Below, piece by piece: positions 5,183 through 38,782 of a DNA stretch of 39,481 nucleotides. The notes under the pieces are model-generated. The model saw only the letters and a program-made list of their open reading frames with translations. It was not told the DNA's origin and did no database searches. Source of the DNA: a virus (lineage: Duplodnaviria > Caudoviricetes); IMG/VR virus record IMGVR_UViG_3300032277_000023, positions 1-39,481 of that record. One strand, 5' to 3'. Each line of letters begins with the position of its first letter. The stretch's first letter is position 1. A program made the position numbers and the translations under genes.

Positions 5183-5788
5183 ATGAGCGACCAAACGACC
5201 ACCACCGAGGCCCCGGCGGCTTCGGCGGAATCAACCACGACGTCCGCACCAGACCAGGCACCCGACCCACGCGATCAGCGGATTGCAGAATTGGAAAGGG
5301 CAGCCAACGCCAACGCGGAACAAGCCAAGAAATACCGGCAAGCAAAGGCCGCCGAAAAAGAGGCCAAAGAAGCGGCCCTCGTCGAGAACGGCAACTTCAA
5401 AGCCCTGGCCGAATCGCTCCAAGCGGAACGGGATGCCCTGAAAAACCAATTGGGCGAACTGGGACCCCTTGCGGCCGAATTCAAAGCCGACAAGGAAGCC
5501 CGTAGCGCGGCCCTCGAGCAACGCATTTCGGGACTCAGCGACGACGACAAGGCCCTGATTCAAGGTGCCGGGAATCTCGCGAACCAGGAGGCCCTCGCCT
5601 CCCGTTTGATGGGCCTCAAGCCCACCGTGACGCCGAACGCGGACACCGAATCCGGCACTAAGCCCCCATCGGGGCCCCCCAAGTCGCTGGCCGACATGAC
5701 CGGCGCAGAAATCGCGGCCCATGCGCGCAAATCGCGCTCGGACGCACCAGCCACCACGTTCGGTGGACTGATCCCCCGCAAACAGTAG
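5183..5788 (+). CDS. Capsid scaffolding protein
   Basis: Low-complexity N-terminus, long Ala/Glu/Lys coiled coil, immediately before the major capsid gene. Confidence 0.75.
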   Translation: MSDQTTTTEAPAASAESTTTSAPDQAPDPRDQRIAELERAANANAEQAKKYRQAKAAEKEAKEAALVENGNFKALAESLQAERDALKNQLGELGPLAAEFKADKEARSAALEQRISGLSDDDKALIQGAGNLANQEALASRLMGLKPTVTPNADTESGTKPPSGPPKSLADMTGAEIAAHARKSRSDAPATTFGGLIPRKQ

Positions 5789-5828
5789 CGCCCCACACCT
5801 GGGGCCCCTTCACTAAGGAAAAATCCCC

Positions 5829-6800
5829 ATGGCAGTTACCTCCAGCTCAACCCAAAGCGACCTTTATTTTAGCGAAGTACTCGGCCGCGGCGCACTTGCA
5901 GCCGCCCAGCCACGTCCTATCGCAATGCAATTCGTCAACCAGTACAGCATCGCTGGCCGGCGCGCGGACAACCTGAAACTGAACCGATACACCGATATCG
6001 GCCCAGCAGGCACCGCTACCGAGGGCACCCCATACACAACCATCACGACCATGGGTGTGGAAACTCCGGTCACCCTTACCCCGACGGAAGCCGCGGTTTT
6101 GATGGCCGAGCTTACCGACGACGCCATTGAACTCGTGGGCGGATTCGAATCGGCCCGCGCCATCATCGAAGACGGCTCCCAAGATGACAAATTGGCCCTT
6201 CTGTTGCCTACCGCTGGCCGCCTGGCCCGTAGCGCCATCGAAAAAGCCGAAACCGACCTGGTGGCCGAATACGGCAACCTCACCACGTCCGTTGGCACAA
6301 CCACCGTGGACCTCGACCTCGGCGTGTTCGAAGAGGCGATTTACAACCTCGACATCGCGGAAGCGCACACCCAAGCCTACGTCGCCAACCTTCACGCTCG
6401 CCAGGTCTCGGACCTCCGTCGCGCGATGGCGGTTACCTCTGGCGGCCTCGCGGGCTCCGTGCACGTCGGTTCCAGCGTGGACCACCTTGCATCCCCCAAC
6501 GGATTCAAGTTTAACTTGCTCGGCGTCCCCGTCTTCCAATACGACAAGTCGGCCGAACTCACCGCTAACACCGGGGCTGACGTCGTCGGCGCTATGTTTA
6601 TCCGTGGCATCGGCAACCCCGAAGACCCGATGGGCGGTTCGGGCGAAGTCGGCGCGTTCGCCATGTGTGAAGCTCGTTCCATGCAGTTCGGCTTTGAGCC
6701 CGACCTCGAGGGACGCAGCATCAAGGTGATGGTGAATTGGAAATACGACACCGCGGTCCGCGATGCTGACTTCGGCGTGAAAATCGTCACCGACGCATAG
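5829..6800 (+). CDS. Major capsid protein (HK97 fold inferred)
   Basis: 323 aa, strong RBS (TAAGGA), follows scaffold, followed by terminator; ATEG and LLGVPVF segments typical of MCPs. Confidence 0.85.
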   Translation: MAVTSSSTQSDLYFSEVLGRGALAAAQPRPIAMQFVNQYSIAGRRADNLKLNRYTDIGPAGTATEGTPYTTITTMGVETPVTLTPTEAAVLMAELTDDAIELVGGFESARAIIEDGSQDDKLALLLPTAGRLARSAIEKAETDLVAEYGNLTTSVGTTTVDLDLGVFEEAIYNLDIAEAHTQAYVANLHARQVSDLRRAMAVTSGGLAGSVHVGSSVDHLASPNGFKFNLLGVPVFQYDKSAELTANTGADVVGAMFIRGIGNPEDPMGGSGEVGAFAMCEARSMQFGFEPDLEGRSIKVMVNWKYDTAVRDADFGVKIVTDA

Positions 6801-6815
6801 ACCTCATGAGACCCG

Positions 6816-6857
6816 GCCTCCGGCCCCTAAGTGTGGGGGGGCCGGGGGCTCTTTTTT
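6816..6857 (+). terminator. Rho-independent terminator after major capsid gene
   Basis: GCCTCCGGCCCC / GGGGCCGGGGGC 12-bp stem (one G-U) followed by TCTTTTTT. Confidence 0.8.
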
Positions 6858-6906
6858 AGACCACGCAACCCCACGCACCACGCACCACCATCAGGAGCCC
6901 GCACAC

Positions 6907-7509
6907 ATGGCACGCCCTCAAACCAAATCATTCTGCAGAATCGTCACCCTGAAATCCGTTATCGACGGGTTCACAATCGAACACAAAGACGAGGGTCATT
7001 CCCCGAAGACCCACAACCCAGGCATCGGCCGCCGTCGCATCATCCGAGCTCTTGACACCAAATCCAAACTGGACGGGCTCCCCGCATTCAAAGTCGTGGC
7101 CGTTGGCCCCGTTCCGAACCGCCTGGACTTCGACATCCCTGCGTCCAAAGTGCCCTCGTTCCCCGATTTCGGCGCCCACCTCATGTGGGGCCCCGAAGAC
7201 GACGACCGACGCGAGGCCCACGCCGACTATCGCAACAAAGTCAGCTCGGAAGCCCAGGCGGCCGGCATCGCCGAGGCACGACGCGAGGCCGACAAGCAAA
7301 CCAACGTTAGCGAAATGGCCGCAGCCGTGGCCGTTGCAATGAAGGCCGTTAAAGACGCCGAAAAAGCGGAAGCCGCCGAGGCCCAGGCCGCCGAGGACGT
7401 ATCCAAAGCCAAGGCCGACGCCAAAGGCACCGCGAACACCAAACCCAGCGCACGCAGGCCCAAGGCAGCACCCAAGCCAGAAGCCGCCGCACCGTCGGAG
7501 GAATCGTGA
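6907..7509 (+). CDS. Hypothetical head-associated protein with Ala/Lys/Pro-rich tail
   Basis: AGGAG RBS; 200 aa; position after MCP. Confidence 0.7.
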   Translation: MARPQTKSFCRIVTLKSVIDGFTIEHKDEGHSPKTHNPGIGRRRIIRALDTKSKLDGLPAFKVVAVGPVPNRLDFDIPASKVPSFPDFGAHLMWGPEDDDRREAHADYRNKVSSEAQAAGIAEARREADKQTNVSEMAAAVAVAMKAVKDAEKAEAAEAQAAEDVSKAKADAKGTANTKPSARRPKAAPKPEAAAPSEES

Positions 7510-7655
7510 GCGACTCCCGACCCAATGACCAGAAACACCGCGACGCCCGTGCCAAACTCGAGAAGCGCTACCGCGACTCCGGCATGAAACCGGAGGCTGC
7601 GCGCGAACGGGCCCGCAACACCCAAGACCGGGCCATCCGGAAAGGCAATTCATGA
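7506..7655 (+). CDS. Small basic hypothetical protein (49 aa, not in ORF track)
   Basis: GTGA and ATGA overlaps at both ends; GGAGG upstream; MSDSRPNDQKHRDARAKLEKRY...KGNS. Confidence 0.6.
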   Translation: MSDSRPNDQKHRDARAKLEKRYRDSGMKPEAARERARNTQDRAIRKGNS

Positions 7656-20792: not shown

Positions 20793-21030
20793 GGTCCCGA
20801 GGATAGCACAAGGGCCACCGTTTTGCCATCCATAGCAGGCCGTTTGGGCATTCGCACGTTAGCCGGAACAGGACACTCTTTTCGCGCATCACGTCCACCG
20901 CGACCCGTCGTCCTCGTATCACGCGGAAACCGCGGCCGGGCACCCGCTCGACGACCGGTTGCCAGGTCCACCCTAGCGTGGCGCAGCGTCCACACCGGGG
21001 GCCCGTTGGCGTTGGCGTCCTAGGACTCAC
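20761..21030 (-). CDS. Small Zn-finger-like hypothetical protein
   Basis: CGRC...CECPNG; ATGA-coupled to the methyltransferase. Confidence 0.6.
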   Translation of the reverse strand: MSPRTPTPTGPRCGRCATLGWTWQPVVERVPGRGFRVIRGRRVAVDVMREKSVLFRLTCECPNGLLWMAKRWPLCYPRDHGTPHNPPIS

Positions 21031-21593
21031 AGGAGCTCATTTCCTACGCGGTCCCACCCGGCCACAATGTGACGAGAAAACAATTCAATCCGGGGCCGGT
21101 CCCCATAACACTCGACAATTGAATCTCGAATCTGTGCAGGTTTCTCGCTATGTGCACCTCGAGGCGCCGGCACCACCTGGCGCACCTTGGACGACACCAG
21201 CGGAAACGGCCGGCCCTTCTTACAGGTGGTGAACAATAGACAGAGCTCCGACGTAGGTTTCACGGCCGTTGGCGGGACCCCTTGGGCACCGATAAGGGCC
21301 CCGTCTTTGGTGGTCTTAACCCAATTGAAAGCGACACCGCGATAATGGAGCCCCCAGGCACGCCCCGCGTCGATGGCCAGCGGCAAGAGCGGGCACGTAG
21401 CCCACACGAACGCGGCGCCCCGTTTTGGGTCCCGGAAAAGGCTGGCCACCGGCAATGCGTTGATCTGTTCGGGAGTCATCGACGCGGCGTACTCCTTGCC
21501 CGCGGCCCCCATTTTCGTCTGGGACCCGTAGTAGGTCCATGCGGGATCGGCATAAACGATATCGTATTTCCCGAAATAGGGTTCTAGGTTCAC
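21027..21593 (-). CDS. MT-A70 family (N6-adenine) methyltransferase
   Basis: GTG at 21593 overlaps thyX stop; YDIVYADPAW, FVWAT, FNWVK, SELCL, HSEKP, RIELFSR..GWD..GNE. Confidence 0.9.
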   Translation of the reverse strand: MNLEPYFGKYDIVYADPAWTYYGSQTKMGAAGKEYAASMTPEQINALPVASLFRDPKRGAAFVWATCPLLPLAIDAGRAWGLHYRGVAFNWVKTTKDGALIGAQGVPPTAVKPTSELCLLFTTCKKGRPFPLVSSKVRQVVPAPRGAHSEKPAQIRDSIVECYGDRPRIELFSRHIVAGWDRVGNELL

Positions 21594-22369
21594 GGTGCAC
21601 GTCCTTCGTTGAAAAGGGCCAGCGTACGCGGAAACGACGTCTCGAGCAACGCGGCAACCTGGTCCGAGTATTGGCGAATCTCCCACTGGGCGTGGCTATC
21701 GGACCGGAGCCCCACGAATTTAAGCCAGTTCAGCAAATTAGCCTTGGCACGGAAAACGGTGTAGCGCGACACAGGCAAAACGCACCTGGCAAGCTCCTTC
21801 GGAACCCCCGACTTAAGTAGTCCCCGATAAACATCCGCGGCATACTCGAATGCCCGATCAATATCGTCCGAGCAGTGCATGGCCTCCGTCTCGTCCAACG
21901 CGGCACCGGTTCCCTGGGCTTGCTTGTTGGCCGTGTCGACGTTCAAGAGCCGTTCAACGCTCGGCACATAGTCTTCCGTCGCAAGCGGCGCGTATCGAGC
22001 GCTGGCCTCGTTGTAGCTTTGGGTCCGGTGTCGCATCCATTGGCGGGCCACGAAAATCGGTGCCTTGATTTCGAAAACGGCTTCACACATTTCGAACGGG
22101 CTAGTGTGTCGGTTGGTCCATAGGTAGCGCAAGAGACGCTCGTCGCCATGGCCCCAGCGGTGTCCGTGCTCCTGGGTAGCGGGACAATCGGTTGGATAGG
22201 CCCCGTATTGCTCCCCGCAATCGCGGCAAATCGGACCCCACCCCTTGAATCCGCCACCGGTCGACATCCTGGCGGCTTCAATGATCCGCTCATCGGACCC
22301 CATGGTTTCTATCAATTGAATGTAGCCGTGGTCCAGGACCTGGCGTTTTTCGGTTTCGGTTGTTCGCAT
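21590..22369 (-). CDS. thyX: Flavin-dependent thymidylate synthase ThyX
   Basis: AARMS, HTSPFE, RQWMRHRTQSYNEASARY (RHRx7SxR), ELARCVLP, HAQWEIR. Confidence 0.95.
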   Translation of the reverse strand: MRTTETEKRQVLDHGYIQLIETMGSDERIIEAARMSTGGGFKGWGPICRDCGEQYGAYPTDCPATQEHGHRWGHGDERLLRYLWTNRHTSPFEMCEAVFEIKAPIFVARQWMRHRTQSYNEASARYAPLATEDYVPSVERLLNVDTANKQAQGTGAALDETEAMHCSDDIDRAFEYAADVYRGLLKSGVPKELARCVLPVSRYTVFRAKANLLNWLKFVGLRSDSHAQWEIRQYSDQVAALLETSFPRTLALFNEGRAP

Positions 22370-29854: not shown

Positions 29855-29884
29855 TTGACACGCAAAACACAGCCCCCTACAAAT
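29855..29884 (+). promoter_or_regulatory. Putative rightward early promoter
   Basis: TTGACA-N17-TACAAAT; near-duplicate at 35744-35773; ATG follows 6 nt after the hexamer. Confidence 0.65.
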
Positions 29885-29889
29885 GGAGC

Positions 29890-30123
29890 ATGATAGAGCT
29901 ATTTATTCCAGGAACCCGAAACGACGGCTCCGGCGAAGGCTCCGGCGAAGGCTGGGGCTCCGGCGACGGCTCCGGCGACAGCTACGGCTCCGGCTGGGGC
30001 TACGGCTCCGGCTGGGGCTACGGCTCCGGCTCCGGCTGGGGCTACGGCTCCGGCTCCGGCTGGGGCTACGGCTCCGGCTGGGGCTACGGCCGCGGCTCCG
30101 GCTCCGGCTTCGGCTCCGACTAA
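29890..30123 (+). CDS. MIELF-(Gly-X)n peptide, copy 1 (77 aa)
   Basis: MIELFIPGTRNDG then GS/GW/GY dipeptide repeats. Confidence 0.75.
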   Translation: MIELFIPGTRNDGSGEGSGEGWGSGDGSGDSYGSGWGYGSGWGYGSGSGWGYGSGSGWGYGSGWGYGRGSGSGFGSD

Positions 30124-30154
30124 CTAACTAACCCACACCCAGGAACGACCCACC

Positions 30155-30217
30155 ATGAACCTCTTCGACGATCCCGAATCCCCCGTGGACGCCTTGGACC
30201 AGGACCCCGAGGAATGA
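30155..30217 (+). pseudogene. 20 aa internally deleted paralog of 30510-30914
   Basis: MNLFDDPESPVDALDQDPEE matches the N-terminus (NLFDDPE) and C-terminus (VDALEQDPEG) of the 134 aa gene. Confidence 0.7.
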
Positions 30218-30513
30218 TAGAGCTATTTATGCCAGGCACCGAAAACGATGGCTCCGGAGACGGCTTCGGCTCGGGCCGCGGCTACGGTAAAGGCTCGGGC
30301 CGTGGCTCCGGTAGAGGCTCCGGCTCCGGCTCCGGCTGGGGTTACGGCTCCGGCTCAGGCTGGGGTTACGGCTTCGGATTCGGCTCCAGCTCCGGCTACG
30401 GTAAAGTCTCCGGAGACGGCTCCGGTAGAGGCTCCGGTAGAGGCTCCGGTAGAGGCTCCGGCTCCGGTAAAGGCTTCGGCTCCGGCCAACTCAACCCAGG
30501 ATACCAACCATGA
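30214..30513 (+). CDS. MIELF-(Gly-X)n peptide, copy 2 (99 aa)
   Basis: MIELFMPGTENDG then GS/GR/GK/GW/GY/GF repeats; ATGA overlaps at both ends. Confidence 0.75.
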   Translation: MIELFMPGTENDGSGDGFGSGRGYGKGSGRGSGRGSGSGSGWGYGSGSGWGYGFGFGSSSGYGKVSGDGSGRGSGRGSGRGSGSGKGFGSGQLNPGYQP

Positions 30514-30914
30514 AAAACCTCTTCGACGACCCAGAACAACCCGACCCCTTCGCCGACGCCCTAGACGCGGCCAACGAGGCCCAGGTAACGGCCGAAAAAG
30601 CCTCCGAGCGCATGGCCCAGCTGGTGGACCGTATCCGGGAACTCGAATCCGGCCACGACGCTTTGCTGTCCCAGATGCGGGACATCCGCCAGACGACCGC
30701 GGACATCATGCGCCGCTTCGACCAGTACACCGACCGTGTGGACCTGTTGTCTGGGCTGGATCCCGACTGTAATACAGCAAACCCGTGCACGGGATGTCCC
30801 GATTGCGGTGTAACGCGGCACAGCGTACCCCCTCCAGCCAGCGCCATGCGGGCGTCACGTGAAAGGGCTCATGCCGCGGCCGTGGACGCCTTGGAACAGG
30901 ACCCCGAGGGATGA
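30510..30914 (+). CDS. Coiled-coil protein with Cys cluster
   Basis: 134 aa; heptad region then C....PCTGCPDC. Confidence 0.7.
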   Translation: MKNLFDDPEQPDPFADALDAANEAQVTAEKASERMAQLVDRIRELESGHDALLSQMRDIRQTTADIMRRFDQYTDRVDLLSGLDPDCNTANPCTGCPDCGVTRHSVPPPASAMRASRERAHAAAVDALEQDPEG

Positions 30915-31111
30915 TAGAGCTATTTATTCCAGGAAACCGAAACGAGGGCTCCGGCTCCGGCTACGGATACGGATGGGGCTGCGACTCCGGCGACGGCCGC
31001 GGCTGCGGCGACGGCTGGGGCTGGGGCAACGGATCCGGCTGGGGCTCCGGCAACAGCTCCGGCAGCGGATCCGGCTACGGCTACGGCTCCGGCTTCGGGG
31101 ATATCGAATGA
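30911..31111 (+). CDS. MIELF-(Gly-X)n peptide, copy 3 (66 aa)
   Basis: MIELFIPGNRNEG then Gly-X repeats including two Cys; ATGA overlaps at both ends. Confidence 0.75.
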   Translation: MIELFIPGNRNEGSGSGYGYGWGCDSGDGRGCGDGWGWGNGSGWGSGNSSGSGSGYGYGSGFGDIE

Positions 31112-31437
31112 ATGCCAATCCACCGTGGCGTTGGACGTGCAACGGCGACGCCTTCGAACTGATCGCGACACGTGACCTGAAATCGGCCTGTCCCGGAGCC
31201 GTCGTAATCCGCGTAACCGGCCGCAATGGCGCCTATTTGGTGCGGGGCTCCGGTCTGTTCGTGACGCTCCGCATCGGGGCGCCCTGCCCCGTGCGTCGAA
31301 GCCGCAACCCGAACCGTCCCCACTATCCCCGCGAACCCAAACGCATCAAATCATTCCAGGACCTACTAAAATCGGCCGAGGCCATCGCCCGGCATCACGG
31401 CCTACACCGACCACCCGAAACGAGGATAAACCGATGA
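31108..31437 (+). CDS. Hypothetical protein (109 aa)
   Basis: ATG at 31108 overlapping copy 3 stop. Confidence 0.55.
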   Translation: MNANPPWRWTCNGDAFELIATRDLKSACPGAVVIRVTGRNGAYLVRGSGLFVTLRIGAPCPVRRSRNPNRPHYPREPKRIKSFQDLLKSAEAIARHHGLHRPPETRINR

Positions 31438-31730
31438 AACCCGTACAAGGCCCCAGCCACCTAGACATCCACCAACGTGCTAGGCTAGAACACCTGGAAC
31501 AGGAACATAGGGGAGCGAGAATCGTGATCTGGTATCTGTTGGTCGCATCCGTGGCCGCCGTAGTGACCATTGCATACCAACGGGACCAGATCGACACCAT
31601 GCGCGCGGTCCACGGGTCCGAGTGTTCCGACGTCATCCGTCGAGCGATGGTGTTCGATTGGGGTCCACGGAATACGTGGCGTATGACCGCGTGTGGGTTC
31701 CGCGTTACCATGGCCGTGGCCGACCGATGA
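31434..31730 (+). CDS. Single-TM hypothetical protein
   Basis: GAGGA RBS; TM IVIWYLLVASVAAVVTIAY; 98 aa. Confidence 0.6.
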   Translation: MKPVQGPSHLDIHQRARLEHLEQEHRGARIVIWYLLVASVAAVVTIAYQRDQIDTMRAVHGSECSDVIRRAMVFDWGPRNTWRMTACGFRVTMAVADR

Positions 31731-31975
31731 TAGAGCTATTTATTCAAGGGAACCACAATAACGGCCGCGGCTCCGGATGGGGCTCCGGCTCCGGCTCCGG
31801 CGACGGCTCCGGCTGGGGCTCCGGTGAAGGCTACGGCAACGGCTACGGCTGGGGCTCCGGCGACGGCTGGTGCTCCGGCTCCGGCACCGGCTCCGGCAAC
31901 GGCTCCGGCCGCGGCAACGGCTCCGGCCGCGGCAACGGCTCCGGCTACGGCAACGGCTCCGGCTTTCGACGCTAA
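31727..31975 (+). CDS. MIELF-(Gly-X)n peptide, copy 4 (82 aa)
   Basis: MIELFIQGNHNNG then GS/GN/GW/GR/GY repeats; ATGA overlap upstream. Confidence 0.75.
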   Translation: MIELFIQGNHNNGRGSGWGSGSGSGDGSGWGSGEGYGNGYGWGSGDGWCSGSGTGSGNGSGRGNGSGRGNGSGYGNGSGFRR

Positions 31976-31983
31976 CAGAATCG

Positions 31984-31992
31984 TGATACAAT
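31984..31992 (+). promoter_or_regulatory. Possible extended -10 promoter
   Basis: TGATACAAT in the short gap before the phosphoesterase; no good -35. Confidence 0.35.
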
Positions 31993-32020
31993 GGGCCCCT
32001 GAGCCCTAGCCGGAGAAACC

Positions 32021-32809
32021 GTGGCCCCAACCGTAACCCTCGACGTGATTTCAGATATCCATTTCGGAGCCGGGTCCGAATCCCATGCTGCTACCGAATC
32101 CTATGCCCAGTTCGCCGCGGTCCACCCACCAGACATCCGCGTGTGGCTTGGGGACATCGCCGAAATGGAATCGTGTTCGGCCCATGGTGGGGCCCGCGAA
32201 CCGCCCACCCTTGCCGACGACATCACGGCCACCGTGGACGGGATCGACCGTATTCAGGACTGGGCCCCCGTTGAACGCGAAATATGGGTCCCTGGCAACC
32301 ACGAAGACCGATATGCCCGACGACTAACCCAGGACGTTGGCAACCTGGCCAACGGACTCCCTACCCTCGAGGATCTGCTGGAGCTTGGCCGCCGCGGATT
32401 CCAGATGCCAGGCGACTCGTGGTCGTTTCGTGGCGTCCTGTTCACGCATGGATTCGTCCGATCCCAGCACCACGGGGCCCGCATGCTGCAATTGTTTCCG
32501 GATTCCGCGGCCGTAGTGTATGGACATCATCACCGGGCTGGCGTGACATGGCGCAAGCGAGCGAATTACGGCGGCCCCACCCCTCTGACTCCGGACGCCC
32601 AGTCCAAAGGGAGCCGGATGGCCATCGCGAACCCATGTCTAAGGGACCTGGACCCGACGTGGATCCGCGGCCCATCGGGCTGGGTTAACGGGTTCACCCG
32701 GCTCGTTTTTCATGAAGCCGGATTCAACCACCAAACCCATCTAATGCACGGCGAACGTTGCGCGTTCTATGCCGAGGGCCAGTTGTGGGACCGGGAGTCG
32801 TTACTATGA
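32021..32809 (+). CDS. Calcineurin-like metallophosphoesterase
   Basis: SDIH, LGD, GNHE, THG, GHHH motifs in canonical order; GGAG RBS. Confidence 0.9.
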   Translation: MAPTVTLDVISDIHFGAGSESHAATESYAQFAAVHPPDIRVWLGDIAEMESCSAHGGAREPPTLADDITATVDGIDRIQDWAPVEREIWVPGNHEDRYARRLTQDVGNLANGLPTLEDLLELGRRGFQMPGDSWSFRGVLFTHGFVRSQHHGARMLQLFPDSAAVVYGHHHRAGVTWRKRANYGGPTPLTPDAQSKGSRMAIANPCLRDLDPTWIRGPSGWVNGFTRLVFHEAGFNHQTHLMHGERCAFYAEGQLWDRESLL

Positions 32810-33018
32810 TAGAGCTATTTATTCCAGGGTCCACTAACGACGGAGACGGAGACGGCGACGGAGGGGGCAACGGCTACGGCTACGGCTCCGGCAACGGCTG
32901 GGGCAACGGCTACGGCTACGGCTACGGCGACGGCTACGGCGACGGCTACGGCTACGGCTACGGCGATGGCGACGGCTACGGCTCCGGCTCCGGCTGGGGC
33001 TCCGGTGCACCATGCTAG
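32806..33018 (+). CDS. MIELF-(Gly-X)n peptide, copy 5 (70 aa)
   Basis: MIELFIPGSTNDG then GD/GY/GN repeats; ATGA overlap upstream. Confidence 0.75.
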   Translation: MIELFIPGSTNDGDGDGDGGGNGYGYGSGNGWGNGYGYGYGDGYGDGYGYGYGDGDGYGSGSGWGSGAPC

Positions 33019-33257
33019 AGGACATCCGGGAATACCTGCCGTTGATCCTGGTGGAATTGTTCATGGCCATAGCGTGGCGCCTGATCGTCGTCGAGGGGCG
33101 TTGGTTCGGGCGCACCATGCCGGACGAGGAGCCCGACGCGGACGCGGACGCGGATGAATGGATCGCAAACCCCGACGCCGTTGTCGAGCTACAAGACGAC
33201 GTGGCCCAATTAACGCAGCGCGTCATGGAACTAGAACTAGCGCAGGAGACCGAATGA
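33012..33257 (+). CDS. Small membrane protein with acidic coiled coil
   Basis: N-terminal hydrophobic segment, acidic linker, LQDDVAQLTQRVMELE. Confidence 0.6.
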   Translation: MLEDIREYLPLILVELFMAIAWRLIVVEGRWFGRTMPDEEPDADADADEWIANPDAVVELQDDVAQLTQRVMELELAQETE

Positions 33258-34348
33258 GACCTAATCCCCATGTACAACGGGCCCTGAGTGCCCTATCCCA
33301 ATCCCACGGTGTCGACGGCCGCGCGGCCAGTGGCAGAACCCTAAGCACGCTGCAACGTGCCATGATAGCCGTAGCCGGAACCATCGTGACCAGCGGGTGT
33401 TATGTGCCGGACCAGTCGACGCTTGCCATTATCCCCGAGCGTTACGGATTCATCGGCGAAGAGCACTATATGCAGGTTAGCTCCCACGTAACTGATGGGG
33501 TCGAGGTGGACCTACACACCGACATCCAGACCAGCGCGACCGACGACGGTGACTGGGTCGGCGTGACCATGGACTCAACAACGCCCCGCGTCTATGTGGT
33601 GGCCGAGTCCTACGCCAGGGAAGGCGAAGACCGCCAAGCCTGGCACGCGGGCCTCTTCACCGGGGTCCAAAAAGCCACCGTGGACGGCGGCGCCACCGTC
33701 GTGAACATGGGAGACAGCATCACGGCCAACGGCTCCATCACCGCCCGAATCCAAAGCCATCTAGCAGAGCTCGGCGTCACGGTCCACAACCACGCCGTTA
33801 GCGGCAAAACGTGGCAATGGTATGCGGCCGATGTGGAGGGAATCGCCGAAACGGACGCGGCCATTGCCCGAGCCCCCGACGTAGTGACCTGGATGCTAGG
33901 CACCAACGGCCTATTCACCGCCTACCCGAGCGCATCCGGGCTGACCGGCTACCCAGCATACGTTGCAGCCGAAATCGACGCAGCCGAGCGCCTTTTTGCC
34001 CGGTTCCCCGCGACCACCGTGCACCTGGTTGCGCCACCACCTCCGGGAAACGACGTAGAATCAACCTACCTGGTGTATGAGCCATATGACGAGCCCCACC
34101 ACCCGAACGCCGGCATCAGCACCCGACAACGCTGGTTGTTTCGGACGCACGACGTTATGACCGAGTATAAGGCAGCCTGGGCCGACCGGGACGACGTTGT
34201 CTTGGTTCCAGCTCGGTCATCGATCCACCGGACCGACGGATACGGCGGGGACACCGTGCACCCTGGAGTCATCGGGCTAAATCAGTTAGGCGACGCCTTC
34301 GCGCCTGCTATTCTGTGGGCTATCCAGCGACAACGGGGGACACCGTGA
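33254..34348 (+). CDS. SGNH/GDSL hydrolase, possibly a lipoprotein
   Basis: GDSIT, AVSG, LGTN, DTVHP blocks; hydrophobic stretch ending TSGC near the N-terminus; ATG at 33254. Confidence 0.85.
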   Translation: MRPNPHVQRALSALSQSHGVDGRAASGRTLSTLQRAMIAVAGTIVTSGCYVPDQSTLAIIPERYGFIGEEHYMQVSSHVTDGVEVDLHTDIQTSATDDGDWVGVTMDSTTPRVYVVAESYAREGEDRQAWHAGLFTGVQKATVDGGATVVNMGDSITANGSITARIQSHLAELGVTVHNHAVSGKTWQWYAADVEGIAETDAAIARAPDVVTWMLGTNGLFTAYPSASGLTGYPAYVAAEIDAAERLFARFPATTVHLVAPPPPGNDVESTYLVYEPYDEPHHPNAGISTRQRWLFRTHDVMTEYKAAWADRDDVVLVPARSSIHRTDGYGGDTVHPGVIGLNQLGDAFAPAILWAIQRQRGTP

Positions 34349-34797
34349 ACCGACGAATCAAACGAGCCATCCAACGCGCAGCCTTTGTTGCCGACGTCTT
34401 GACCAACCGGGCCCTAAAATGGTCCATCCAAACCCTGTTGCCCACGCTAACGGCCACGGCCTTTGGCGTCCTGGCCTACGGGGCACTCATCGCGGCCATC
34501 GTGGTGCTGAGCTCGTGTGCCGCGCCTCAGGAGCCCGACCCCACCGAGCCGGACCCGGCGTGCTCCCAAGTCATTGCGGCGGCGTGCACCAACGCGGCCC
34601 AGTGCGTCCCGGTCGATGATGCTGGGGCCGAGTATGCTCGGTGTGTCGCGTTTTTTGGGTCCATTTTCGCGCCCAACCCGTTGTGCGTCGGGGTTCGGGT
34701 GACGGGAAACGTGGATCCGTGCGCCGAATCGCTGGCATCGTGTGCGCCGGAAATCGTGATTCGTGCGCAGTGTGATAAGGTCGAGTGGGGCCCTTGA
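34345..34797 (+). CDS. Cys-rich putative lipoprotein
   Basis: GTG at 34345; hydrophobic segment ending LSSC lipobox; eight further Cys. Confidence 0.7.
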   Translation: MNRRIKRAIQRAAFVADVLTNRALKWSIQTLLPTLTATAFGVLAYGALIAAIVVLSSCAAPQEPDPTEPDPACSQVIAAACTNAAQCVPVDDAGAEYARCVAFFGSIFAPNPLCVGVRVTGNVDPCAESLASCAPEIVIRAQCDKVEWGP

Positions 34798-34822
34798 CAC
34801 CTCCCACCCCGTCCAATAGGCT
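34794..34822 (+). promoter_or_regulatory. sigma70-type promoter with leaderless geometry
   Basis: TTGACA-N17-TAGGCT-N6-ATG; no SD before ATG 34829. Confidence 0.7.
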
Positions 34823-34828
34823 CGCCTC

Positions 34829-35713
34829 ATGAAAAAAGAAACCCGAAAACTCCCTACCTTCGCAACCCACGCCGGATTCACACGGGAACTCATCGTCCCG
34901 AAGCTTCGGGTCCTCAACCTTAGCGGCGGACGCCAATCGACCACCATTGCCGAAATGATAATTCACGGGGACCTACCCCCAGTAGACCTGTGTTTGACCG
35001 CGGATACCGGCATGGAGCACGAAGCCACCTATGCCCATATCAAGGACCTACACAAGCGCCTAAACCAAGCCGGAATCAAGGCCGCGGTAGCACCGGGACC
35101 TAACCTATGGGATGATCTGGTGACGCTGGGGCCGCGCAAAGCGACTCGCCTAGACAATCCGCCCTATTGGGTACAGAAGGAGAACGGGGGCCGCGGCCGT
35201 CTGGTCCAGAAGTGTACCAAACACTACAAAATAGCCCCCATGGACCGGTATATCCGGCAGGAATTGCTCCGAACCCATGGAATCAACCCGGAGGCCCGGC
35301 GCATCGGGCACAACATCGTGGAGAAGTGGATCGGGTTTAGTGCAGACGAGACCAGCCGGATGAAGCTTCCGGGGCAAAAATACGTATACTTCGGGTTCCC
35401 GCTCGTGGATCTGGGATTCAACAAGGACGACTGCATATCCTATCTGGAGTACAGGGGCCGTCCGGTGCCCCCTCCCTCCGTGTGTGTGGCGTGTTTCAGC
35501 AACCCGGCCGCATCCTATAAGACCATGGGACCCACCGATTTCGAGCGGGCCCGCGCCGTAGACGAGAGCCTAAGTCAATGGGCACAAATCGGAATCAAGG
35601 GAGATGTGTACGTCTCAAAAACGCTTCGCCGACTAAGCGACATCCGGGCCGACGAAGAAACCGAACCGGACACCGACGAAGGATCGTGCGATGGCGGATA
35701 CTGCTTCGTGTGA
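34829..35713 (+). CDS. PAPS-reductase-like (PP-loop adenine nucleotide alpha-hydrolase) protein
   Basis: LSGGRQS PP-loop, ADTGME, CT..YKI.P, WIGFSADE..R, FPL, SVCVAC, C-terminal CDGGYCFV. Confidence 0.85.
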   Translation: MKKETRKLPTFATHAGFTRELIVPKLRVLNLSGGRQSTTIAEMIIHGDLPPVDLCLTADTGMEHEATYAHIKDLHKRLNQAGIKAAVAPGPNLWDDLVTLGPRKATRLDNPPYWVQKENGGRGRLVQKCTKHYKIAPMDRYIRQELLRTHGINPEARRIGHNIVEKWIGFSADETSRMKLPGQKYVYFGFPLVDLGFNKDDCISYLEYRGRPVPPPSVCVACFSNPAASYKTMGPTDFERARAVDESLSQWAQIGIKGDVYVSKTLRRLSDIRADEETEPDTDEGSCDGGYCFV

Positions 35714-35743
35714 CCAGAATCACAGGAATCCGCACCCAAGGGG

Positions 35744-35773
35744 TTGACACCCGAAAACCGAGCCCCTACAAAT
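35744..35773 (+). promoter_or_regulatory. Putative early promoter (duplicate of 29855-29884)
   Basis: TTGACAC..AAAAC..AGCCCC-TACAAAT with 17-nt spacer. Confidence 0.65.
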
Positions 35774-35821
35774 AGTCCAGGGCCACCAACGGCCCAGAAA
35801 CCGAACCAAGGAAACCCGAAC

Positions 35822-36136
35822 ATGTTCAAAGACTACATTGGAAAATTCGTTATCGTGCGCAGCGACAAGGACGGCGTCTGGGCCGGAACCCTGAAAGCCC
35901 TCGAGGGCTCCACCGAGGGCGAAAGCCGCATGACCGCCTCCCTCGAAAACTGCCACCTGGTCCACTCGTGGCAATCGACGGCGGCAACCGCTGGCCTGGC
36001 CGTGTTCGGGCCCGGTGAGGGCTCCAACGTCAGCGACGCAACCCCAGCCCACATTTGCGCGGACGTGGTCGGATTGTCGGTCGCCACGGCATCCTCCAAG
36101 AAGCGGTTCGCCGACATCAAAAAGTGGAACCCATAA
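35822..36136 (+). CDS. DUF6948-like small beta-barrel phage protein
   Basis: YIGKFVIVRS..DGVWAGTL...L.N......W......GLAV.G pattern; AAGGA RBS; family recalled from memory, not searched. Confidence 0.7.
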   Translation: MFKDYIGKFVIVRSDKDGVWAGTLKALEGSTEGESRMTASLENCHLVHSWQSTAATAGLAVFGPGEGSNVSDATPAHICADVVGLSVATASSKKRFADIKKWNP

Positions 36137-36140
36137 GCCA

Positions 36141-36362
36141 GTGATAGAGCTATTTATGTCAGGAAACCGAAACGACGGCTCCGGCAAGGGCTCCGGCTCC
36201 GGCAAGGGCTACGGCTCCGGACGCGGCTACGGCTCCGGCCGCGGCTCCGGCCACGGCTCCGGCTCCGGCTCCGGCAAGGGCTCCGGCCACGGCGACGGCT
36301 ACGGCGACGGCTACGGCCGCGGCGCCGGGCCCAAAACCGAACCGAAAGAAAACGAAACATGA
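36141..36362 (+). CDS. MIELF-(Gly-X)n peptide, copy 6 (73 aa, GTG start)
   Basis: (M)IELFMSGNRNDG then GS/GK/GR/GH/GY repeats; 4 nt after DUF6948-like stop. Confidence 0.7.
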   Translation: MIELFMSGNRNDGSGKGSGSGKGYGSGRGYGSGRGSGHGSGSGSGKGSGHGDGYGDGYGRGAGPKTEPKENET

Positions 36363-37051
36363 AAACCGAAATCATCCAAAAAATCCAAGAGCTCCTAGCG
36401 ACCCCCCCAACCGCGGACGTGTTGGAGGCTGCCACGGATGCCGCAATCGAGCACCTAGACATCGACGGCGACGAACTCAGCATCATCTGGGACACCAAAA
36501 AACCCCGACGTGACGCAATCGAGGTCCCCGGCTTCCGCGCGTCCCAGGTGCCATGCATCATCCTGCCGAACACCAGAGGCACCGCACTGAGTCCGGCCGA
36601 AAAAGCCGAAATCCTGGCCGCCGTGGACTGCAACACCCTGACGTGGGACGGCCGAACCGGAGCCCACTGGATCGTCATCAAGATGCGCCACCTCAAAGGT
36701 CTCCGGGCCTGGGCAATCGTCGACAAATCGGCAACCCTAGGCGAGGACCCCACCCGTATCCTCACCGAATCAGGCCCCCTTGCCCTGTATGCGCTCGAAA
36801 CCGAGGGCCACCTAGTTCGGGAGGGCCGCCTAGCCCGCCATTGTATCGGAAGCAGGCAGATGGGCTACAGGAGGTCCCTAGGGTCCGTGGACATCGCCTA
36901 CGTATCCGTGCGCCGAAAAGAAGCCCCCGAACTCCCAGTGGCCACGGCCGAGATCCGCGGAACCCGCATCATCCAGATCCAAGGCCGCAGCAATTCGGCC
37001 GTTAGCCAGGACACCCGCGCGATCGTCGAGCGCTACGCAGCTACGCGATGA
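36359..37051 (+). CDS. PcfJ-like domain protein
   Basis: C-terminal L..EG....HCIG...SVR......ATAEI....IQIQGRSN pattern. Confidence 0.75.
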   Translation: MKTEIIQKIQELLATPPTADVLEAATDAAIEHLDIDGDELSIIWDTKKPRRDAIEVPGFRASQVPCIILPNTRGTALSPAEKAEILAAVDCNTLTWDGRTGAHWIVIKMRHLKGLRAWAIVDKSATLGEDPTRILTESGPLALYALETEGHLVREGRLARHCIGSRQMGYRRSLGSVDIAYVSVRRKEAPELPVATAEIRGTRIIQIQGRSNSAVSQDTRAIVERYAATR

Positions 37052-37221
37052 TCGAACTATTCATACCAGGGACCACCAACTACGGCACCGGCACCGGCGA
37101 CGGCTACGGCTGGGGCTCCGGCGAAGGCTACGGCGGGGGTAACGGCTGGGGCTCCGGTGACGGCTGGGGCGACGGCTACGGCCACGGCTACGGCCACGGC
37201 ACCGGCTCCGGCTCCAACTGA
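37048..37221 (+). CDS. MIELF-(Gly-X)n peptide, copy 7 (57 aa, not in ORF track)
   Basis: MIELFIPGTTNYGTGTGDGYGWGSGEGYGGGNGWGSGDGWGDGYGHGYGHGTGSGSN; ATGA overlap upstream. Confidence 0.75.
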   Translation: MIELFIPGTTNYGTGTGDGYGWGSGEGYGGGNGWGSGDGWGDGYGHGYGHGTGSGSN

Positions 37222-37239
37222 ACCGAAGGAAAACGAAAA

Positions 37240-38567: not shown

Positions 38568-38599
38568 GGCCACCGAGCCCCCAACGCGAAAGACGAAAC

Positions 38600-38782
38600 A
38601 TGCCAACCGGACCCCATAAAATCACAATGAGACGAAGGCCGGCTGCCAAGCGCCCCATGTGGGTAGTTGAGAAGGACGGCGACACCTGGATAACCGACAC
38701 GGTTACCTTGGACGCTGAAAACTTCCACAAAAATGCCGAGATCCACATCATTGTGGACCCCAACCCGAAAGACGAGCCATGA
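38600..38782 (+). CDS. Hypothetical protein (60 aa)
   Basis: ATG at 38600 after A/C-rich leader; ATGA overlap downstream. Confidence 0.55.
   Translation: MPTGPHKITMRRRPAAKRPMWVVEKDGDTWITDTVTLDAENFHKNAEIHIIVDPNPKDEP

Follow-up and report, generated by a model that had tools for sequence, protein, structure and literature searches.

A tailed-phage genome fragment with seven Gly-X peptide genes, one shared leader and a single DUF6948 barrel gene

Pairs of a DUF6948 gene and a short gene for a Gly-(Ser/Tyr/Asp) peptide occur in the cultured phages Sabo of Pectobacterium (XDF89730/XDF89731) and NK-7 of Ralstonia (XCO36016/XCO36015, annotated 'fibroin heavy chain-like protein'). The Pfam name covers only the barrel protein of this module, and no paper on DUF6948 or on the barrel/Gly-X pair was found in a search outside which supplements and subscription papers lay. 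Here we analyse a 39,481-nt virus record (IMGVR_UViG_3300032277_000023; its whole length is called the window), which holds seven Gly-X genes. As in the cultured-phage pairs, an open reading frame (ORF) with a short leader and strict Gly-X alternation lies immediately behind its barrel gene, and both its arrays and those of other DUF6948 partners consist of hexamers with uniform silent positions. Unlike typical loci, which have one acidic Ser/Tyr/Asp copy, the window has seven copies, a 13-residue leader, 10% Trp and two basic bodies. We tentatively favour the explanation that these are paralogous genes selected for composition and spread by duplication and recombination, whose products, predicted to be disordered, would be multivalent partners of the single DUF6948 barrel. 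They are likely to act during early infection, a timing suggested by gene context.

Other described systems resemble parts of this arrangement. Hfq of Acinetobacter has a disordered GGFGGQ-repeat tail that is needed for function (PMC11617691). The likeness lies in an Sm-fold core (predicted here) combined with a repetitive Gly/aromatic disordered region, and we also count as likeness that the redundancy of this region matters (PMC11617691). Hfq is an established RNA chaperone that carries its tail by fusion. In contrast, the peptide here has a gene of its own and alternates Gly-X, and the barrel is at most a putative ring former and RNA binder. The T4 early proteins GoF, MotB.1 and Frd.2 have predicted LSm-like folds (PMC12152347), and like them the barrel is a small phage protein of predicted LSm-like fold in an accessory region. 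In contrast to our locus, the abstract of that paper mentions no Gly-X partner, and the likeness is one of predicted fold and setting. The PeSL cassettes of T4-type phages (PMC2839356) are likewise repeats scattered among accessory genes, where their homology can promote shuffling; those are non-coding promoter plus stem-loop elements, whereas the repeats here are selected coding sequences. Finally, the bodies may be comparable to [G/S]Y[G/S] condensate and hydrogel domains and might co-assemble, as the initial annotation suggested. They have 0.17-0.43 aromatics per Gly-X unit, and AlphaFold gave the peptide no fold (predicted local distance difference test, pLDDT, 34; only 7 sequences in the alignment).

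The seven genes sit in a + strand block of small accessory genes that starts at about 29.9 kb, divergent from the primase gene, and they are spread over 7.3 kb among unrelated genes. The features of this block are as follows.

29855..29883, + strand: promoter-like motif TTGACA-N17-TACAAA of repeat family D9, 6 nt before the copy 1 ATG.
29890..30123, + strand: Gly-X copy 1, 77 aa, S/W/Y body; first gene of the + strand block.
30155..30217, + strand: 20-aa ORF MNLFDD...DALDQDPEE, an internally deleted duplicate of 30510-30914 (repeat D17); its TGA overlaps the copy 2 ATG.
30214..30513, + strand: Gly-X copy 2, 99 aa, S/R/K/Y/F body, net positive.
30510..30914, + strand: 134-aa ORF MKNLFDD...DALEQDPEG, duplicated together with a Gly-X gene; its TGA overlaps the copy 3 ATG.
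30911..31111, + strand: Gly-X copy 3, 66 aa, S/W/Y/D body with two Cys.
31727..31975, + strand: Gly-X copy 4, 82 aa, S/N/W/R body; ATGA overlap with ORF 31434-31730.
32806..33018, + strand: Gly-X copy 5, 70 aa, acidic Y/D body; ATGA overlap with the metallophosphoesterase gene 32021-32809.
35744..35772, + strand: second TTGACA-N17-TACAAA motif (repeat D9), upstream of DUF6948.
35822..36136, + strand: DUF6948 (PF22253) protein, 104 aa, predicted Sm/LSm-like barrel; single copy in the record.
36141..36362, + strand: Gly-X copy 6, 73 aa, GTG start, basic S/K/R/Y/H body; 4 nt behind the DUF6948 stop.
37048..37221, + strand: Gly-X copy 7, 57 aa; its leader has diverged at synonymous sites, and its start shares an ATGA with the stop of the PcfJ-like gene 36359-37051.

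The initial annotation had reported seven ORFs of 57-99 aa, each opening with the consensus MIELF(I/M)(P/Q/S)GxxN(D/E/N/Y)G and continuing as near-perfect Gly-X alternation. We recovered all of them on the + strand at the same starts and with the leader consensus as given, with Gly at 202 of the 211 alternate positions in the seven bodies and no phase shift. A six-frame scan of the record found no eighth copy, and 100 order-3 Markov shuffles of the window gave neither a [MV]IELF match nor a (G-X)10 run. The distinct chemistry that had been assigned to the X residues of each copy is real in that charge per unit runs from -0.25 to +0.18, but it was overstated: no residue is more frequent at X than Ser, with 73 of 205 positions in all and a share of 35-46% in five copies, and copy 3 has only two Cys. 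At five of the seven starts, the ATG and the stop codon of the preceding ORF share an ATGA. A tandem duplication that includes the MNLFDD gene is visible across copies 1-3. Copies 2 and 6 have C-terminal tails that cross the initiation region of the next gene and are not conserved. Copy 1 probably has a start of the leaderless type; the repeated TTGACA-N17-TACAAA motif was not listed by a sigma-70 consensus scan. The nearest clusters in the ESM Atlas were unnamed viral proteins of 66-80 aa (0.95-0.96, weak recognition). The seven exact peptides are absent from the protein collection, which small-ORF calling alone may explain.

Codon usage in the bodies speaks for selection. Among the 199 Gly-X units of the window, free mixing of the three X-codon positions would give 21 Cys, 11.7 stops, 8.7 Ala, 5.6 Pro and 4 Trp, and the observed numbers are 2, 0, 1, 0 and 21, respectively. 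These expectations assume free recombination inside the hexamer, and shared descent of units also lowers the number of hybrids, which makes the counts support and not proof. The same trend was seen in 67 arrays from other phages, with 44 Ala observed against 193 expected and no stops against 30. A Gly-X array at L125 (- strand, about 5559-5760) contains frameshifts and is either a broken gene or an assembly error.

Uniformity within the array reaches at least 90% at hexamer position 3 in 51 of the 67 arrays and at position 6 likewise in 51, whereas positions 4 and 5 stay mixed. Between arrays the Gly codon differs only silently (GGC 54, GGT 6, GGG 4, GGA 3), and the third position of the X codon is NNC in 43, NNT in 22 and other in 2. 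Because these differences are silent in the Gly frame and change or break the +1 and +2 frames, the Gly frame is the conserved product. The two other frames were considered as products and rejected. The +2 (Arg-Leu) frame is interrupted by stops in three of the seven window bodies and in 27 of the 67 arrays from elsewhere. Within the bodies no stop interrupts the +1 (Ala-Pro/Thr) frame, but this frame begins with a stop, and its residue changes between GGC, GGT and GGG arrays. In Chlorobiaceae phage CV-1-33 the gene annotated behind DUF6948 (QOE32032.1; L182, 2780-3025) encodes a (Met-Ala)n peptide. It resembles the +1 frame of a GGC-NNT Gly-X array and is possibly a wrong-frame call. Presumably, rapid slippage sweeps the silent sites while selection holds the Ser/Tyr/Asp mixture. 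As far as sequences can tell, the window bodies are under protein-level selection on composition.

The leader is also constrained. Copy 7 differs from copy 1 at five sites in codons 2-8, all synonymous and none replacing a residue (p about 0.001, with 5.3 synonymous sites of 21), so the leader is under purifying selection in the lineage of the window. Given this selection, a local binding role for the leader may be considered. The six remaining leaders share their DNA, and with it the codon ATA, which is rare (in 11 large genes, 7 of 217 Ile codons).

Reads and related strains show how the copies move. In Logan contigs of run X1, possibly the source reads, all the leaders occur in their own flanks without a single difference. 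Breaks fall only inside the arrays of copies 1 and 2 (30010-30061 and 30303-30432), and the unit counts of these two copies are therefore not spanned. Runs X2 and X3, which come from two further studies with matching year and habitat, represent related strains, and their contigs keep the flanks of copies 3, 4 and 6; run X4 covers a small share of the window only, without the copy-6 locus. At that locus, the X2/X3 contigs have a leader identical to that of copy 1 over 38 nt and a different body in frame. This body reads Gly-Trp-Gly-Ser-Gly-Ser-Gly-Asp-Gly-Trp (W/D), where the window has its Lys/Arg/His body. The leader of copy 1 at the copy-6 locus, together with the tandem duplication of copies 1-3, indicates that leaders were likely homogenised by exchange and that bodies are not fixed to their loci, contrary to the fixed chemistry per locus proposed in the initial annotation.

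That the seven copies arose by reverse-transcriptase variation from a GGC-AAC template, as in diversity-generating retroelements, or as assembly artefacts, is highly improbable and already largely refuted. The variation does fall on hexamer positions 4 and 5, where mutagenesis of the adenines in AAC would place it. These two positions are not independent, however, Asn is infrequent at X, GGA is the majority codon of three arrays, and the record contains no RVT_1 domain. The artefact version conflicts with the distinct flanks in which the X1, X2 and X3 contigs place the leaders.

The exchange between loci also fits the proposal, which we consider unlikely, that only one copy works and that the extras are near-neutral recombination products, their dispersed homology shuffling accessory genes as the PeSL cassettes do (PMC2839356). 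The tandem duplication of a Gly-X gene with the MNLFDD gene, the swap of leader and body at the copy-6 locus, the DNA shared by six leaders down to the ATA codon, and an X3 contig without 34790-35720, between two promoter-like motifs, would all follow from it. It accounts poorly for seven intact frames with no stop against 11.7 expected, for a copy 7 leader whose protein sequence was kept through five silent changes, and for the recurrence of the flanks of copies 3, 4 and 6 in other runs.

Purifying selection on the leader, on the other hand, suits a panel in which a constant leader docks on one partner and delivers distinct, locus-fixed bodies to different host targets. The range of body charge per unit points the same way, as does the scarcity of Trp and of net-positive bodies among the comparison arrays (0 of 2055 units and 1 of 67 arrays). 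We nevertheless judge such a panel quite unlikely. The body at the copy-6 locus differs between strains, Ser is the commonest X overall, and elsewhere in the family leaders are mostly 1-12 residues long and lineage-specific, so that a family-wide role of the leader as the docking tag suggested in the initial annotation is not supported. Searching with the leader gave MIELF joined to Gly-X in no other record. It was absent from two viral DNA scans (10 and 9 loci); a metagenome scan returned 22 loci, of which 5 were the contig of the window itself and the other 17 lacked Gly-X; a profile search returned 40 Gly-X proteins, none with the MIELF leader, and a single-sequence search returned none.

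The Gly-X genes belong to a module that is widespread. For comparison we scanned for another barrel subtype, recognised by its VRTYSAGV motif, and sampled 120 loci (114 non-redundant) of about 640. Adjacency was counted in the 59 non-redundant loci with at least 900 nt downstream, as a same-strand Gly-X ORF within -700 to +900 nt. Such an ORF lies beside the barrel in 55 of the 59, compared with 0 of 27 control loci that match the pattern by chance and lack the barrel; the 28th, L192, has both. Copy 6 fits this pattern, directly behind the barrel and on the same strand, and the relation to Gly-X genes next to DUF6948 that the initial annotation named was borne out. The partner ATG overlaps the C-terminal Trp codon of the barrel in 37 of 61 loci. 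The 61 partner leaders are mostly of 1-12 residues, unrelated between phages, and some are only M, MD or MA.

Multiplication of the partner is less common. A single Gly-X copy is present in 81 of the 114 loci, with a typical acidic S/Y/D body and a median net charge of -7, and at least two copies are present in 9 (40 of the 120 loci had only 300-nt flanks). Copies with shared leaders occur in L072, L075, L132, L030 and G017, and a shared leader on multiplied copies is therefore a recurring result of local duplication. Under a looser rule, DUF6948 in the 39-kb G033 (L178, 8600-13000) is flanked on both sides, within about 4 kb, by a total of eight Gly-rich ORFs of lesser regularity; several of them contain Cys and have heads ending in D(N/S)MN(L/M)Y. 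A multicopy set with a shared leader is consequently not unique. The unusual character of the set did hold up: Trp occurs in 21 of 199 window units and in 0 of 2055 comparison units, and two of seven bodies are net positive against 1 of 67 arrays. Bodies with Trp were also seen in L027, L028, L030 and L132, and Trp in the window therefore marks a variant of the module. L192, the one other locus with the barrel motif type of the window, has a single S/Y/D body. Judged by the sequences compared, what appears new is the combination of seven dispersed copies, one MIELF leader, and Trp and basic bodies.

The strength of the link to the barrel gene bears on the possibility that the peptides act without the barrel, as bulk decoys that soak up host proteases, kinases, ADP-ribosyltransferases or single-stranded nucleic-acid-binding defence proteins, with the DUF6948 link reflecting co-expression only. 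Selection on composition suits decoys, as do copy numbers ranging from 1 to 8, the distance of six copies from the barrel, and the fusion of Gly-X arms to many further domains in phages. We doubt this explanation, since the link is kept across unrelated phages (55 of 59 loci, with 37 of 61 at one offset) and no analysis pointed to a host target.

The layout of leader plus core recalls precursors of ribosomally synthesised and post-translationally modified peptides (RiPPs), in which Gly-Ser/Cys cores would be modified and the leader cut off. Gly-Ser runs resemble the cores of microcin B17. This origin, raised in the initial annotation, is very unlikely here, with no radical SAM or YcaO protein in the 39.5-kb record (35% complete; host enzymes could supply these), Cys depleted in the bodies, and no cleavage site or leader conserved across the 61 partner leaders of the family.

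The 104-aa barrel protein matches DUF6948 with 31.1 bits, above the curated cut-off of 27 (PF22253). The AlphaFold2 model has a mean pLDDT of 94.5, and its best solved structural matches are Sm/LSm chains, with a VIA-align Z of 8.7 and a root-mean-square deviation of 2.1 over 67 aligned residues for the Lsm chain 6ppv_A, and a best Foldseek Sm match at E 0.0065. Weak profile matches (E 0.05-0.08) were obtained to LSM14 in two and to SM-ATX in one of 29 barrel members. The model thus predicts an Sm/LSm-like fold. Invariant residues of the barrel alignment are R13, G18, G22 and W50. The closest relative is one protein with 76% identity, and viral and genome scans for close relatives found the barrel in 0, 0, 1 of 27 and 0 of 1 loci. 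Between the strains, 14 of 15 differences in the DUF6948 gene are synonymous. Some proteins of great length or repetitive sequence also matched the DUF6948 query, with as many as 22 matching stretches, among them P0044 (4364 aa), P0063 (6839 aa), P0058 and P0064.

In the explanation that we favour, slippage and gene conversion would reshuffle the bodies and homogenise the leaders. If reshuffling is ongoing, selection would act on the Gly spacer, the aromatics (Tyr/Trp/Phe) and the small polar residues, not on the exact sequence. The ATGA(TAG) start would supply a stop for any preceding gene, which allows the cassette to settle behind unrelated genes and be translated by coupling. By analogy with the Gly/aromatic tail of Hfq, supplied in trans, the peptides may bind the barrel via their repeated aromatic side chains, and once bound they may tune its assembly or its action on RNA. 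The seven copies would mainly raise the dose and widen the composition.

Several observations weigh against this explanation. A detached tail might be expected to show some fusions to its core, yet there are no in-frame barrel-Gly-X fusions among 73 loci. Barrel charge and body charge do not co-vary (rho 0.01, n=65), six of the seven copies do not adjoin the barrel, and the comparison arrays belong to the other barrel subtype. Gly-X stretches are also fused to other domains, such as DUF7666 and unnamed ones, and at the Gly-X locus L176 a search of 20 of its 31 kb gave no DUF6948. The barrel resembles Sm proteins in structure only: Foldseek gave no match at E 0.001 or better, and the barrel has no sequence match to a solved Sm protein. 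The uridine pocket of Sm proteins is formed by Asn and Arg-Gly residues. Because the invariant residues of the barrel do not include these, RNA binding by the barrel is not given. Locus L176 (G048) carries three Gly-X ORFs on the - strand (5774-7600) with Thr-rich heads and a shared tail (YPLITDDPLVAL..).

The Gly-X peptides could instead be phage mimics of single-stranded nucleic acid carried by the barrel, the seven genes forming a self-reshuffling library that jams host RNA chaperones or defence proteins. An extended chain with one aromatic ring per two residues, about one per nucleotide length, would thread Sm/Hfq-type and other RNA-binding pockets, and Trp, which is purine-like, and basic units would widen the set of host targets. 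We regard this mimicry as distinctly improbable.

The window itself is a linear sequence with 61% GC and a CheckV completeness of 35%. It encodes terminase, DNA polymerase A, primase-helicase, Thy1 and other tailed-phage proteins, and its terminase matches are about 32% identical. The sequencing runs that contain it are labelled microbial mat metagenome, and none of those listed is an RNA run. No Rfam family and no tRNA was matched in the record, and Pfam TrAA12 matches were below the cut-off and compositional. Ordinary phage accessory genes are present, namely a GDSL/SGNH hydrolase (33254-34348), the metallophosphoesterase (32021-32809) and an MT-A70 methyltransferase (21027-21686). The ESM Atlas returned nothing useful for the 134-aa neighbour of copy 2. 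A/C-rich initiation regions (AACCGAA..GAAA) are repeated before accessory genes at 35790-35821, 36326-36358, 37222-37239, 38579-38602 and 38758-38781, and the tail of copy 6 reads through one of them. The X3 contig joins 34790 to 35720 with 16 other letters between, and the PAPS-reductase-like gene 34829-35713 is missing from it. Flanked by TTGACA promoter-like motifs at 34794 and 35744, region 34790-35720 may be a promoter-bounded cassette that comes and goes.

The module is not rare: about 640 viral stretches hold one barrel-motif subtype, and nearly all of those sampled carry a Gly-X partner. Its arrays are a clear case of concerted evolution in which composition is kept and sequence is not. 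The window offers a natural set of seven peptides with one leader and one barrel, in which leader can be compared with body and acidic with basic bodies. If the peptides are indeed partners of an Sm-like barrel, phages would own a two-part system, with an Sm core and a separate low-complexity tail, for controlling RNA or forming condensates.

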